From positions 63,874 to 127,873 of the IMG/VR virus record IMGVR_UViG_3300027608_000016: a DNA stretch of 64,000 nucleotides. One strand, 5' to 3'. Positions 5,923 through 61,892 of the stretch are shown piece after piece. This DNA comes from a virus. The number at the start of each line of letters is the position of its first letter. Position 1 is the stretch's first letter. Under the pieces are notes generated by a model. That model had not been told where the DNA came from, made no database searches, and worked only from the letters and a program-made list of their open reading frames with translations. The position numbers and the translations under genes are program-made.

Positions 5923-6727
5923 GTCGTTTATGAGTTTTTAATAGTTCTCCCTTTTCTTTCAAATCTATGAAGAGGTTTGAAACTGATACTACAGTGTTAG
6001 AGTCATCCATTTTATATAATTTCATCTTCCCTCTTCTTATGGAATCTGATGTCAATCTTTGTATTGGAAATATTAAGCTTACAGTGTGCCAATTTTTAGA
6101 TTTTATCGTATATGCATCTATTTTAGTCATATCCAATCTATAACTATATATCTTCAAAGATTCTAGGAATTCCGCAGACTGTAGAAGTTTATGAGACACT
6201 AATGCAAATGATTGAGTCCCATTTGTTTTAGATAGTATTATCACTCCTACTGGTTTTATAATACTATCATCTACCAAATCCACGTTTGTCATTTCATCCG
6301 TCAATGGTATAGAGAACCCTACCATTTTAGATAGTTTGTTGACCATTTCAACAAATTTGTATCCATGATTTACATCAAACATGTGTTTAGATATAAAGTA
6401 TGCATGAATCATTTCATGAATTATGATTCCATTTAAATCATCCTCAGACCTTTTCAATATGTTAGAAATTTTAATCTCTAGCGAACCTTCTATTAATGTT
6501 ACGCCATGATATCTATTATATCCACCTCTACCATTAGAAGGTTTTTTCACTTTAGCCACCGTTATTCCCCCAACACCTTTCAGTTTTGCCCAATATACAG
6601 GTATTTTAGGTATTTCTCCATTGAAAAGTGTAGTGTTATAATGATCGAACTTTTTCCCTAGATCATAATCAGAGAAATTTATAGTGCTTTCGTTTAAGAC
6701 TGTGTTTATTAAAGCATTTATATTCAT
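5912..6727 (-). CDS. SprT-like zinc metalloprotease with leader
   Basis: IIIHEMIHAY...NHGYKF; leader MNINALINTVLNE; TAAATA 8 nt upstream. Confidence 0.8.
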   Translation of the reverse strand: MNINALINTVLNESTINFSDYDLGKKFDHYNTTLFNGEIPKIPVYWAKLKGVGGITVAKVKKPSNGRGGYNRYHGVTLIEGSLEIKISNILKRSEDDLNGIIIHEMIHAYFISKHMFDVNHGYKFVEMVNKLSKMVGFSIPLTDEMTNVDLVDDSIIKPVGVIILSKTNGTQSFALVSHKLLQSAEFLESLKIYSYRLDMTKIDAYTIKSKNWHTVSLIFPIQRLTSDSIRRGKMKLYKMDDSNTVVSVSNLFIDLKEKGELLKTHKRHEI

Positions 6728-6760
6728 GCTTTAAGTATTTAACTTGGATATATCAATATA

Positions 6761-26190: not shown

Positions 26191-26688
26191 ATGGGAATAA
26201 AACAAGACCTTGCTTACGCTATTGCAGAATTAAGAAGTGAAAGAGAAGCACGAATACTTCTTTTCAACACCATCAGAAATCATTTAGGTCTTGGAGACGA
26301 GGAACATACCCACTCTCAATTAGTAGCAGAAGTCAACTCGCGTATAGCAAATTATGAAAATAGATTGGCAGAATTCAAAGAGTTAGATGCTATAAAAAGT
26401 TTAAAGTTTGATGCGTTATTCAATTCTAATTCCGCTTTAACTTTAGAAATAGATAAACACTTGGACACTATTAAATCCTTGAGAGAAGAACACAAAGAAG
26501 AGTTATATAAGTCAAGAGAGGAACATAAACAAGAGCTATACAATTTAAGAGAGGAACATAAACAAGAGTTGGAGAAAATGAAGAATGGTTATGTGGCTGA
26601 ATTAGAAGAAGTTAAGAATAAACAAATTAAAACTCAAGAAGCTATTATAAAACTGTTAATGTTTCAACCCACAGAAAACATAACTTAA
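26191..26688 (+). CDS. Coiled-coil protein with 11-aa repeats
   Basis: REEHK(E/Q)EL three times; TAAATA 5 nt upstream. Confidence 0.7.
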   Translation: MGIKQDLAYAIAELRSEREARILLFNTIRNHLGLGDEEHTHSQLVAEVNSRIANYENRLAEFKELDAIKSLKFDALFNSNSALTLEIDKHLDTIKSLREEHKEELYKSREEHKQELYNLREEHKQELEKMKNGYVAELEEVKNKQIKTQEAIIKLLMFQPTENIT

Positions 26689-37438: not shown

Positions 37439-38384
37439 ACCAGTTACCAGTGTTGAAAGAGTCATAGATTCCAATATCCATGCCGAACATGATACCGAAG
37501 AAGGAGAAAGGAGCACAGATACCATGCCACAGTCCACGCCAGAATCCAGCACCATCTTTAACGGTTCCTGCTAGTGTATTGGCATCAGCACAACCAGTAA
37601 CAGCGAACAATACGAGACAGACGAGGAAGAGTTTGAGAAAGGTGTTTGTTTTAATGGTTGGCAGTATAGATTGTTGTAGAAAAATGTCAATGCTAATCTT
37701 CCCAAATAGCTCCTTCAAGCTTTCCAAACTCTTCCTCGTATGCTTTATAGTTCTGCATAATGTCCAAGCAATCCTCTTTTGTAAGCGCATCGTCACTGAG
37801 ATCGATTACCGTTTTAACATCCCACATATTTGTAGCACCACTGAATTGAACCTTACGGTAAGCGTTGAATTTTTCCTTAGTCATGGAGATATATTATAGG
37901 ATTGTGTTTGTTATGTCAACTTTTCTTTTAGATGAATCACTTGCATTGGTGTAGTGCAAGGATGATAAGGAAGTTCCCATTTAATATCAGCCCATTCTTC
38001 ATTACCAATTAGAAAAACACGAGTCACTACCCCTTCATAATTCTCACATCCTCCGAGGTTAATCAGATACACTTCCTGATTTGTAAGTTTGTGATCGATT
38101 GTATTATCTGAAACGTGTTTGATCATGGGATATATTACACAGACAATCCTAAAGAGTCAAGAGCGTTTTTCAAAGCGAGCAATAAAGTCATTTGATTCTC
38201 TGGAGAGGGGTTTAAGGCTTGTTCTTTGTCTGCTTTTTTAACCTTGGGATTCTCATATATTGCAGTATGTTGTTTCCTGTTCACGTTAGTTCTGAACAAA
38301 GTGATTACAGTATTTCTAAGGGTTTCAGTGTCCATTTGAGGATTTTATCAGATTGAATTGGATTGTCACTAACTATTTTAAGAA

Positions 38385-38540
38385 TAAGCACGGCAGGATT
38401 TGAACCTGCAATGTATTGTATTTGTATTACGAATCCTTAGACTCGCAGCGTTTATTTCAATACTTCCAGTAGAAAGCTGGATGCGTCTGAACTTCGCGGT
38501 TAGTCCCGTATATCCTTTCGGAGTATTCTGCCACATGCTC
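38385..38540 (-). ncRNA. Oversized (156-nt) tRNA-like RNA
   Basis: Acceptor stem GAGCATG/CGTGCTT plus discriminator A; canonical T-arm GCAGG-TTCAAAT-CCTGC; TGGCAGAAT D-region start; about 80 extra nt forming hairpins. Confidence 0.6.
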
Positions 38541-41500
38541 AAATCAATATACTGTATTTCACTTAATTGTCAATCTTATATTGTGGATATTCTTTATAGA
38601 AGGCGTTTAGAATATCTTCGTGAACTAGAAAGGATTCATCGTAAGATACTGCACCAGAGTTACATAGCATCGAAATCAACTGGACTTCCTCAACAGTTCC
38701 TCCATGCTTTTTAACTCGAACGACATACTCCAAAGTGATTGAAGTGTCTGGATGGTATGCCTTGACTTCGTGTAGTTCCGTGGTGTATATCTCTGGAACT
38801 GGATCAAACTCGATAACTCCTACTTTAGATTTGTTCATGCTTCAAGTCTCCTAATATTATGTTTGAGGGAATATATGTAACAAACATCTCCTGCATAAGA
38901 TTTAGGATCAACAGAAACCTCAATACCGTTGAAGATAAATAGAATTTGTTTATTTTTTTGTTTAGCTTGTTCTATTGCTTCAATTGCAGCATTGAAAATC
39001 GAGTATCCCTTTGGTGGTTCATAAGTCATTTGAGTATTGTATATGTTTTCCGTTAAAGATCAAACCTTTTCTGTTACGGTTACAGTGAATGTTTTAACCT
39101 TTCCTCCTCGTGTAGTCATAGCACGCTCTACAAGGGTTTCGTTATGTCGTGTAGTGTTCAAATCCATTGCTTCTTCTGGTTTTGTAACTGAAGTCCAACT
39201 AGCTTGTCCTTGACTGTATTCAAACTCACGAACAAACCTTCCTCCTTCTGAATCCATTTGAATCACTCGAATCTCTTTAGTGTTTTGTGCTTCAACAATT
39301 CTTTCCAAGTCTTGAACAACTTCTTCCAATCTGTCTGCTTTGCCTTCACTTCTAATGTAATCGTCCTCTGTTTCACCATATGAATGTTCTCGCAGCATTG
39401 AAATATCAAATTTATAGTCAATGATCAAATCGGCAATTGTTTTACTCATTGGAGGATATTACTATGGATTGAAAGTATTGTCAATCGAAATATGGTTCAA
39501 CTGTATAATCTTCCCCTTCTGTTAGTCCTTCGATGCTTCCTTCTGTAACTCCATGCCAATCAGACACTTCCATAACTTCGTCTATTTCGGTTGTATATGG
39601 TTCATTAACAGGATAAACACAACAACCATCACCACACCTCCAAGCAAACACCTGAGTAACATCGACAGCCTTTAAGAATTTAACTTGCATCAGATTAGTT
39701 TTTGATAGATTGCCAATTTAACAGCAGCGATTGCAATGATAGATTGGATTAGGGAATTTCTTAGTCCATTTCATGTTTAAGAATGTATCTGGATTGATTG
39801 AAATGTCAATTCTTATCTGCTTGTTCTTGAAGTGCTTTGATGATTTCTTTAATATCTTGTGCAGGAAATTGAATGTAACACTGAGCGATATTACCCTTTG
39901 AGTTGATAGGGCAAATTTCAATTAACTCTGTGCCTCCTATTTGCATTTTAGAAACTGATAGACCAATCACTTTACCGTTTCCGTTTCGTCCAAGATAGGT
40001 TGTTCCTTTGCCTACCTTGACTTCTGTTGCGTGTGGATGTGCGTAATTTCCCATTGAGATATATTATATGGTTAGGAGTTAGAGTCAATCTTTATTTTAC
40101 TTGAACCTTCCTAAAGTCAGAGGGGTTTGTTCCTCCTTGGATAGTGGGGTTAGACCTCCAAGCACCTACGATTGTTTTATATCCAAGTCGTGTGTGCAAC
40201 CTATAAGTTTCAGCATAGGATTGCCACTCTTCAAAAGACAAATAGTTCTCTTGTAGTTTGCATTGATAACCTTCCAATCCCGATTTGAGTTTGACACGTT
40301 TCATAGTGGAAATATGTTAGAGTCTTTCATGTGGTTGTAAGGCGTTTCTCGAAGGCTTTAATACAAGGAAGCAAGTCACTCACCAAATCGGATAATTTTG
40401 ACTCTATTTCGTCTTGACCATAAGCATGACCATCTTCATAAGCCATGTATGAAAGACGAGACTTGAACTCTTCTGGAACATCCCTTAGAAGATAATCAGT
40501 CTTTTCGATTTCAGTGAAGGTTAGATCGTCAACTGTATCACATCCTATCTGATATGCAACATTCTCTTTAGATGTTCCTGTTCTAGCGATGCCCCATTCT
40601 TTGTGGTGTCCGACGAATATTTTGCTCATAGTGGAAATATGTTATAGTTATTCTTTAAGAATTGCAAGAGTTATTTTAGTTTCCTCCACACAGTTGACCT
40701 ATTTCTTCCATTGTGAGAAGTTCAGAGCATTGTGTTACACCTTTATGAATATCTTCAATGGTTAAAAGAGTTGGACATAGACCGATTGTAGTGCAATTCC
40801 AATGGTGCATCCATATTCTACATCCAATGAAAAAACCTTCTGCATATCCTACAGAAAAAATGACAGGAGATTCGGATTTCTCGATCTTCCCTTTTATTTT
40901 AAAGGTGTATAACATGAAAGGATTCAAACAGAACAGGGGAAAATGTCAATCCGAAACTTCGATGAACTTGTAATGGTAATAGGTATCTCCACCTGTTCCA
41001 CTGTCAGCATTTGCCATATAATACCTTGCTGCTTCTTCTGTCAGAAACTCTTTATCTGCATCAGGATTATACTGGAAGTCAGCATTACCCAATTTGTATT
41101 TACTCCACCTCTCCACTACATATTTACAGTTTTTAACAGGGGAAAGAAACCCTTCAAACTCTGGAGTATCCAAAATGGAATGATACTCGATATTATCATC
41201 TTTAGGAACTTCTACAGTTGGAATACCTTCATCGAGAAGGAGATATGAACCACTGTGACTAGTTTGATATTTCGATGCCATTTCATCAGCAACTTCTGTA
41301 GTAGGTGCTTCACATACAATGAAGCAAGGGACGATAAATCTTTTCTGTGTCATGGAGATATATTATATACTATGGTTTCAATGTCAAAACATTTTTCAGA
41401 TTTCATTCACTTCCATTGTTTCAAACTCAAACCCTCTGGCGTGAATAATCGGAGTGTTACTGGCATCTAACAGCGTCACGTTATCCAGATGCAAGTCTAA

Positions 41501-61611: not shown

Positions 61612-61892
61612 GGGTGTATAGTCCAACGGCAGAGACAACAGACTTTTTGTAATATAATAAAAACTTGAGCTTCATTTGAGAAATCTTATGAATGTCGCCT
61701 TTCAAATTCGGTGAAAGCTTAACTGCCAATACCGAGCCAAGCCTAGAAATAGGAAGGTGTAGAGACTTGACGGAAGGAACCTAAAGCAGAAGCTATGGTT
61801 AAGGTAAAGTCCAGCGCACAAATCGCAAGAATAACGAAAGTTATAGTGTGAAGAAAATCTGTAAAGTGAAAGTTCGAATCTTTCTACACCTA
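61612..61892 (+). tRNA. trnL: tRNA-Leu(UAA) interrupted by a group I intron
   Basis: Exon 1 61612-61645 GGGTGTA-TA-GTCCAACGGCAGAGAC-A-ACAGA-CTT; exon 2 61854-61892 AAAA-TCTGT-AAAGT-GAAAG-TTCGAAT-CTTTC-TACACCT-A; spliced loop CU-UAA-AA. Confidence 0.9.
61646..61853 (+). ncRNA. Group I self-splicing intron (IC3-like, 208 nt, no ORF)
   Basis: IGS TTGAG pairs with exon CTT; P AAATTCGGTGAAA, Q AATACCGAGC, R GTGTAGAGACTTGACGG, S AAGGTAAAGTCC; terminal G at 61853. Confidence 0.9.

Follow-up and report, generated by a model that had tools for sequence, protein, structure and literature searches.

A candidate tRNA-shaped stable RNA of an uncultured freshwater phage with the tRNA-Leu frame of T5 RNA1

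The RNA gene and its predicted fold

The window described here is a 64,000-nucleotide (nt) stretch of viral DNA (IMG/VR record IMGVR_UViG_3300027608_000016, positions 63,874 to 127,873). Its source is an unclassified phage whose proteins have only remote matches. The subject of this report is a 156-nt gene for a transfer RNA (tRNA)-like RNA, which runs from 38540 to 38385 on the minus strand, so that an RNA position equals 38541 minus the window position. The gene occupies a 227-nt gap between two small minus-strand open reading frames (ORFs), 38563-38838 and 38135-38335. It begins 22 nt past the upstream ORF and ends 49 nt ahead of the downstream one, within a run of small early-type phage genes.

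A sigma-70-like promoter (38546..38573, minus strand), consisting of TTGACA, a 16-nt spacer and TATATT, matches the consensus at 11 of 12 positions and is the top-scoring of eight promoter-like sites in 38100-38900. The end of its -10 box lies 6 nt upstream of G1, the first position of the RNA. The upstream sequence with this promoter is identical across three copies from near-identical strains (L052, L057 and L059).

All parts of the RNA are encoded on the minus strand. The acceptor stem is formed by GAGCAUG (RNA 1-7, 38534..38540) and CGUGCUU (RNA 149-155), which pair at all seven positions, two of them as G.U. The latter strand and the discriminator A156 that follows it span 38385..38392, and no CCA is encoded. 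The 5' strand is followed by U8, G9 and the 5' part of a D arm (UGGCAGAAU, RNA 8-16, 38525..38533; the counterpart in the family described below is UGGCGGAAU). The D arm begins GCAGAAU, and its 3' strand AGACGC (RNA 53-58, 38483..38488) is identical to the family consensus AGACGC. Judged against the family D arm, the 36 nt between these two parts (RNA 17-52, 38489..38524) appear to be an insert in the D loop. They fold into two hairpins with pair probabilities of 0.84-0.92, namely UCC-GAAA-GGA (RNA 19-28, 0.85-0.92) and CGG-GACUAA-CCG (RNA 33-44, 0.84 for 34-43). In the D stem, G10-C58 and C11-G57 are pairable and A12/C56 is a mismatch; the predicted probability of the stem is 0.01.

AGACGC is followed by A59 and then by an anticodon-like arm, UCCAG-CUUUCUA-CUGGA (RNA 60-76, 38465..38481, p 0.83-0.90). 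This arm has a 5-base-pair (bp) stem and a 7-nt loop, CUUUCUA, at 38470-38476. Behind it lies a 51-nt variable arm (RNA 78-128, 38413..38463), in which the helix GUAUUG/CAAUAC (78-83/123-128, p 0.49) closes around an 8-bp hairpin with a UAAG loop (94-113, p 0.85-1.0). Within this inner hairpin, GCGAGU-CUAAGG-AUUCGU, the base-pair probability is 1.0 for 97-110. Three nucleotides separate the variable arm from the T arm GCAGG UUCAAAU CCUGC (RNA 132-148, 38393..38409), the same 17 nt of which are found in most family members. An earlier note on this DNA, made from the sequence alone, had described a tRNA acceptor stem and T arm enclosing the four hairpins of the body, and all of these are present.

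The minimum free energy (MFE) of the RNA is -42.9 kcal/mol, compared with a mean of -32.6 for shuffled sequences (z -2.7); one of 200 shuffles was equally stable. The earlier note had offered two ways of folding the body: parse (a), a Leu-like tRNA with an insert of ~60 nt in its D loop closed by AAUACU/AGUAUU, and parse (b), an anticodon arm with a CU-UUC-UA loop followed by a huge variable arm closed by GUAUUG/CAAUAC. Constrained to parse (b), the RNA folds at -42.8 kcal/mol. As drawn, parse (a) reaches -35.8, and its best value is -39.7; the probabilities of its helices AAUACU/AGUAUU (14-19/77-82) and GCAG/CUGC (10-13/93-96) are about 0. Parse (b), with the 36-nt D-loop insert added, is the favoured model of the fold. 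What survives of parse (a) is the D-loop insert, at RNA 17-52 and 36 rather than ~60 nt long. Both closing helices exist in the sequence, but only GUAUUG/CAAUAC is predicted to be populated. The suggestion of a two-state RNA holds as a thermodynamic prediction, although the predicted states are not the pair of parses: the helix closing 78-128 competes with a state in which the 60-76 arm is extended through 50-54/81-85 and 44-46/91-93 (p 0.35-0.47).

ARAGORN did not call the RNA with or without introns, and no Rfam family matched it at the gathering score. The Rfam tRNA model (RF00005), with E allowed up to 10, gave 14.7 bits in the 3' part alone, below its gathering score of 29. Covariance models of group I introns and of transfer-messenger RNA (tmRNA) found nothing at the gathering score and nothing at E up to 10 in 38250-38650, and ARAGORN found no tmRNA in the window, in agreement with the earlier statement that group I core motifs and tmRNA features are absent.

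A family of phage RNAs with a tRNA-Leu frame

The 3' 23-mer of the RNA matched six IMG/VR contigs, five of which have a common 5' block, UGGCGGAAUG-N-AAAGACGC. A search with this block matched 47 IMG/VR stretches. Together with the window the collection comprises 51 elements, 44 of them unique, with lengths of 74-274 nt; an exact 27-mer of the window gene had no match in IMG/VR. The elements have a common layout of acceptor stem, Leu-type D arm, centre, T arm and acceptor 3' strand. The centres are 23-223 nt long and unrelated between lineages. Among the 44 sequences are one true tRNA-Leu(UAG) and one Leu(CAA) arm (L012), and a Leu(UAA) arm is kept behind a 42-48-nt insert in L032 and in its relative L104 from the genome collection. 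Because some members retain Leu anticodon arms, the family frame appears, on sequence grounds, to derive from phage tRNA-Leu genes. The Leu-like ancestry proposed in the earlier note was right, the frame parts of the window RNA being of tRNA-Leu type. A strict test for an anticodon arm was passed by 2 of the 44 sequences, compared with a mean of 1.18 for shuffled ones. Of 43 family members, 31 have A as the discriminator and 6 encode CCA.

In an alignment of 32 members, all seven acceptor pairs change on both sides, as do two of the five pairs of the T stem. The paired cells amount to 99.4%, and the covariation score was reached by none of 500 shuffles. The D stem is invariant by design, as the search pattern fixed it. 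The centres of two members, L014 and L041, differ at 25 positions, made up of 13 unpaired positions and six compensatory pairs, with no broken pair; the structure was predicted from the same two sequences, which favours that result. On these models, the centres of the family are functional structure and not junk.

R1, a covariance model of 32 IMG/VR sequences that did not include the window, matches the window RNA over its full length, at exactly 38385-38540 of the minus strand (47.9 bits, E 1.9e-11). Among ordinary tRNAs, T4 tRNA-Ser scores 32.9 bits and the true tRNAs of T5 score at most 22.6 bits. R1 aligned the D stem of the window RNA as unpaired; both D-arm halves are present, with G12 changed to A and 36 nt inserted. 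The full-length match and the Leu-type frame support the earlier description of the RNA as a tRNA-derived noncoding RNA. To call it novel was too strong, since the long-annotated T5 RNA1 is in the same frame family.

T5 RNA1 (NC_005859, 30501-30644) carries the annotation 'tRNA-like stable RNA with unknown functions' in its record, which describes RNA2 in the same way and RNA3 as a putative tRNA-like RNA. R1 gives T5 RNA1 40.3 bits (E 1e-09), well above the true tRNAs of that phage. Both T5 RNA1 and the window RNA lie amid small early-region genes, with lengths of 144 and 156 nt, and in both a long centre unlike tRNA is framed by a type-II Leu-like acceptor stem, D arm and T arm. T5 RNA1 differs in having an uninterrupted D loop with GG (AAUUGGUAGAC), in lying inside a tRNA cluster and in the unrelated sequence of its centre. 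The window RNA, in contrast, is solitary and has the 36-nt D-loop insert, the 5-bp/7-nt anticodon-like hairpin and the 51-nt variable arm.

In Bacillus phage SPP1 (NC_004166), R1 matches 6647-6756 of the plus strand over its full length (40.0 bits, E 2.1e-09). This element shares the frame and, like the window RNA, is solitary and intergenic, SPP1 having no annotated tRNA. It differs in its length of 110 nt, its unrelated centre and the extra bases in its T stem. The element, for which the record has no annotation, lies between gene 9 and gene 11 and overlaps 'gene 10', a doubtful gene on the minus strand. The word 'tRNA' is absent from the main text of the 2018 revision of the SPP1 genome.

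T4 RNAC (species 1 RNA, 139 nt) and RNAD are likewise phage stable RNAs and come from a tRNA region. RNAC resembles the window RNA in its acceptor-like ends, canonical T arm and long structured body, but has no Leu-type D arm. R1 gives it 15.6 bits (E 0.028), and it is therefore considered to have the same layout and to belong to a different family. A passage in one paper states that the 'biological roles are unknown' for RNAC and RNAD (PMC3014915); a passage in another assigns them 'yet unknown functions' and late expression (PMC9697503).

Compared with a type-II tRNA-Leu, the window RNA has the acceptor stem, U8, D-arm sequence, T arm and discriminator A in common. It differs in its length of 156 nt, its interrupted D loop, an anticodon-like loop that reads UUC or UUU with U37, and a variable arm about twice as long as any in the true tRNAs compared here; in addition, it is rejected by tRNA finders. 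The topology of tmRNA is similar in that an acceptor stem and T arm close tRNA-like ends around a large structured centre, but the window RNA has no ARAGORN or Rfam tmRNA call, retains a remnant of the D stem and has no identified tag reading frame. A man-made parallel is the engineered tRNA scaffold of Ponchon and Dardel, which, in the part of PMC3753655 that deals with it, is described as a frame that recruits cellular processing and protects its insert. There, too, a foreign structured RNA is surrounded by a retained acceptor stem, T arm and D arm. In the scaffold it takes the place of the anticodon region, whereas the window RNA carries its additions in the D loop and variable arm and retains an anticodon-like hairpin.

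The family was not found described in the literature, in a search that was thin on subscription journals. The three bacterial tRNA-mimic families in the relevant part of a 2026 preprint have motifs other than those of the Leu-frame RNAs. Passages of a 2023 catalogue of structured RNAs from viruses refer to tRNA-like candidates in a general way, and the catalogue may list the family (PMC10690425).

A search of 185,579 reference genomes for the D-loop motif gave 56 stretches, of which four alone have tRNA-like ends (L068, L071, L104 and L110). In the remaining 52, which by eye look like coding sequence, neither a T arm nor acceptor closure was found within 450 nt. A search of the phage collection with a family member returned 266 records, and among the 40 matches listed none covers at least 80% of the query. 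No neighbouring gene is common to at least four family loci, save for a spurious ORF that overlaps the RNA. At 33 of 46 loci ARAGORN found no other canonical tRNA or tmRNA in the stretch examined. When introns were allowed it called 22 of the 44 family sequences, with mutually inconsistent anticodons and intron sites. Among words common to the centres, enrichment was found only for the GAAA type (for example GAAAUG in 8, with 1.4 expected), and CUAAG is not general. A recurrent H-type pseudoknot, seen by eye in the centres of L003, L039 and L022, was rejected because only 2 of 16 reach p <= 0.05.

Several observations were made on the arrangement of the family loci. Members stand in tandem pairs at L010 and L043 (group L010/L030/L042, L043, L015). 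At L015, two members and a true tRNA-Leu lie in a tRNA array, on the same contig as a phage tmRNA; L022 and L045 also encode tmRNA genes. Upstream of many members stands ..AATTT or ..ATTTAT, and downstream A-CCAATTT, TCAATTT or ACCTTT; the short direct repeat that results around the element may represent a spacer of an array, a site of processing or the footprint of an insertion. A separate set of genes (L053-L056, L058 and L060-L063, on contigs of 1.4 to 437 kilobases, kb) is type-II tRNA-like with a normal D loop. In these, ~80 nt lie within an anticodon stem CUAGC/GCUAG, ahead of an ordinary variable arm, an arrangement that by eye looks like a long insert in the anticodon loop.

Strain variation and the role of the RNA

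Near-identical strains differ little within the gene. Compared with the window, L059 differs once within the 156-nt gene, whereas its upstream 500 nt hold 80 differences and its downstream 262 nt hold 8; L052 has one in the gene and 15 in 708 flanking nt. At the acceptor pair 6:150 the window has U.G, L057 has U-A and an X6 allele has C-G. A mosaic junction is situated at 38385/38386, where the downstream sequence is replaced right after the acceptor stem in DNA run X5 and in L057. The segment swapped in these two, 38339-38386, holds the 46 nt from the 3' end of the RNA to the promoter region of the next ORF. Strains thus keep the gene while its flanks diverge, and by this comparison of sequences the gene appears to be selectively maintained.

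The eight variable positions are 6, 9, 19, 65, 69, 70, 150 and 156. Three of them fall inside the 7-nt anticodon-like loop (hypergeometric p 0.003 in a post hoc test), for which there are four alleles: CUUUCUA in the window and L057, UUUUCUA in L052, L059 and X20, and both CUUUUAA and CUUUC-A in X6. The loop of the window RNA has the seven nucleotides and the U33 of a canonical anticodon loop; position 37, at which alone the strict anticodon-arm test failed, is U instead of a purine, and the loop is not conserved among strains. As a decoder should keep its anticodon loop constant, the four alleles argue against ordinary decoding. The variation is compatible with relaxed constraint or with diversifying selection.

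It is probable, although far from certain, that the locus is a genuine phage gene, maintained by selection, and that it encodes a tRNA-shaped stable RNA of 156 nt, a divergent member of the tRNA-Leu-frame family that includes T5 RNA1. Its product is most likely a non-decoding stable RNA built on a tRNA frame. Transcription would start from its own promoter, at or next to G1. The minihelix of acceptor stem and T arm would let the tRNA-maturation enzymes of the host trim the 3' end and add CCA, and the same frame would protect the RNA as it does in engineered tRNA scaffolds. The body may then display modules specific to the lineage, namely the two-hairpin D-loop insert, the anticodon-like hairpin and the very long variable arm. 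We think that the RNA acts as a tRNA mimic. Because the loop is the single hot spot of strain variation, the most specific guess, and a weak one, is that the RNA serves as a bait, or as a competitor, for a host factor by which U-rich anticodon loops (Glu/Lys-type) are attacked or modified. In RNA run X20, one 151-nt contig covers 38387-38530 and nothing else of the 1.2 kb compared. The window yielded five 11-mers complementary to the RNA, compared with 7.2 expected, and one 12-mer, compared with 1.9 expected, and thus gave no sign of antisense targets. Among 38 window proteins scanned, no tRNA-processing or repair enzymes were found.

Several points weigh against the interpretation as a non-decoding, maintained RNA. 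The depth of the X20 contig is 2, the library may contain DNA, and contigs show neither RNA ends nor RNA levels; a second RNA run, X19, covered only 38671-38984 in the upstream ORFs and not the RNA gene. The D stem is weak and no G18G19 can evidently be placed, so that the L shape is an assumption, and the discriminator A is replaced by U in L057. Homologue covariation, which the earlier note had named as a check, is found for the acceptor stem of the family, but not for the helices particular to the window RNA (insert, anticodon-like arm and variable arm), because the copies of the subtype that were found (L052, L057 and L059) are all near-identical. A perfect 5-bp/7-nt hairpin with U33 sits exactly at the place of an anticodon arm, unlike in most relatives, and the allele CUUUUAA resembles a normal Lys loop. 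The ribosome of E. coli tolerates large inserts in a variable arm, according to the portion of PMC5397188 concerned with such inserts. Finally, the relatives are without known function, and the decoy idea has the hypervariability of the loop as its sole basis.

It is considered unlikely that the RNA is a working oversized tRNA with 60-76 as its true anticodon arm (UUC, or UUU in one allele). It would supply GAA/AAA-type codons to an AT-rich phage or replace a host tRNA cut by a defence nuclease, with its additions at places that the ribosome tolerates. The perfect stem, the 7-nt loop with C32, U33 and A38, the spacing of one nucleotide from the D-arm 3' strand, the G+C content of the window (30-41%) and the discriminator A, present here and in 31 of 43 family members, agree with this. 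So does a 183-nt tRNA-Tyr with an aptamer in its variable loop, which decodes in E. coli. In the same experiments, as far as they are described in the portion of that study just cited, the aptamer is tolerated in the variable loop, but at the site that corresponds to the insert of the window RNA, between positions 16 and 18 of the D loop, it left the tRNA-Tyr undetectable and inactive (PMC5397188). Decoding is further opposed by U at position 37, by the four loop alleles in near-identical strains, which include a change of anticodon and a 6-nt form, and by an acceptor stem and D arm of Leu type, neither Glu nor Lys. ARAGORN and the Rfam tRNA model reject the RNA, and a strict anticodon arm is missing in 42 of 44 family sequences. 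Leucyl-tRNA synthetase of E. coli, as outlined in a passage of PMC9976931, requires A73, G18G19 and contacts of the D and T loops, and not the anticodon or variable arms. Since the family D loop has a single G at the place of G18G19 and that of the window RNA is interrupted, no charging by this enzyme is claimed.

Slightly less probable still is a cis-acting processing signal in an early polycistronic transcript. RNase P and the 3' tRNA nucleases would cut it, thereby separating or stabilising the neighbouring mRNAs, and the freed RNA would have no role of its own. The position between same-strand small ORFs, with gaps of 22 and 49 nt, is as expected for such a signal, and only the T arm with the U-rich tail after it could act as a terminator before the downstream ORF. 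Across the family, moreover, the frame alone is conserved, no conserved neighbour protein was found, and 33 of 46 loci have no other canonical tRNA or tmRNA call nearby. However, the strong promoter-like site of the gene places the start at position 1, which would leave hardly any 5' leader, or none, for cleavage. The downstream ORF is served by a second promoter-like site (10 of 12 matches), the whole body and not just the frame is conserved among strains, and the centres of related members change by compensatory pairs.

That the gene is a decaying tRNA-Leu pseudogene with random insertions is quite improbable. The D stem is damaged (G12 to A), every tRNA finder rejects the RNA and the loop varies freely, as decay would predict. 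Against this, L059 has one difference in the 156 nt of the gene and 80 in 500 nt of flank, acceptor pairing survives as three pair types, the promoter is retained and the fold is more stable than that of shuffled sequences (z -2.7). The frame also recurs in 43 unique viral sequences with all seven acceptor pairs covarying. There is very little to recommend a non-canonical intron, or introns, spliced to yield an ordinary tRNA-Leu, as the earlier note had also proposed: the frame is of Leu type, the inserts are closed by helices and CUAAGG in the hairpin 97-110 resembles a Leu anticodon loop minus one base, but neither the window nor any of the 24 family loci that were scanned has a match to group I or another intron family, a group I intron would need far longer inserts, ARAGORN did not call the window copy when introns were allowed, removal of the inserts leaves no 7-nt Leu anticodon loop, and the scheme needs parse (a), with its predicted probability of about 0.

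An extension of the interpretation as a non-decoding RNA is speculative and about as unlikely as the decoding tRNA. It holds that the Leu-tRNA frame is a natural display platform for exchangeable RNA effectors directed against host defences. Here the effector would be a bait of the Glu/Lys-type anticodon-stem-loop kind, whose loop would evolve in an arms race against either an anticodon nuclease or a factor that depends on the wobble uridine. If so, the RNA would be an RNA-only counter-defence and not a component of translation.

Other tRNA-like elements of the window and the place of the RNA among phage RNAs

The window occurs in freshwater and lake metagenomes of 13 studies, its DNA has no match among 50,697 phage records, and a BLAST search of the phage collection with 38300-38640 gave none. 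No relative of either flanking ORF was found in IMG/VR, and the upstream ORF has only two close protein relatives.

Four other places in the window have tRNA-like features. At 42814-42871 (minus strand) lies a 58-nt gene with acceptor stem, D arm and T arm and no anticodon arm, in place of which there is a 9-nt connector, GUUCUAACU; the Rfam tRNA model gives it 46.1 bits. A pattern for such forms matched 73 IMG/VR stretches, and 42 of these are unique, 57-66 nt long and with pairing acceptor, D and T stems. Mini tRNAs without an anticodon arm therefore recur in viral contigs. At 61612-61892 (plus strand), a class-I tRNA body is interrupted in its anticodon loop by an insert of ~208 nt; by eye the loop could be read as CUUUU...AA (Lys-type). 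This element has no Rfam intron match at the gathering score and no ARAGORN call, and R1 touches its 3' part (20.4 bits). The sole ARAGORN call in the window, a tRNA-Ser(GCU) at 43008-43100 (plus strand), lies inside a minus-strand ORF of 59 amino acids (42996-43175), has no Rfam support and is probably a false positive. A weak R1 match at 26587-26686 (plus strand; 20.8 bits, E 0.001) has acceptor-like ends and UGGCUGAAU but no T arm, lies inside the ORF 26191-26688 and is probably due to chance.

The window RNA adds a new member, unusual in its architecture, to a kind of phage RNA that is known but unexplained. Because such genes escape Rfam and the standard tRNA finders, they are left blank in phage annotation. 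The family combines a covarying frame with centres that are unrelated yet structured, and it is represented by 43 unique viral sequences, compared with 4 of the 56 motif hits in the reference genomes. Through a single covariance model, the gene connects T5 RNA1 and an unannotated element of the model phage SPP1 with an uncultured freshwater phage. The small stable tRNA-like RNAs of T4 and T5 remain without an assigned function, according to the T5 record and, for T4, to the passages cited above (PMC3014915, PMC9697503). The link to T5 and SPP1 makes this old question of function testable, by deletion or by identifying the binding partners of the variable modules.

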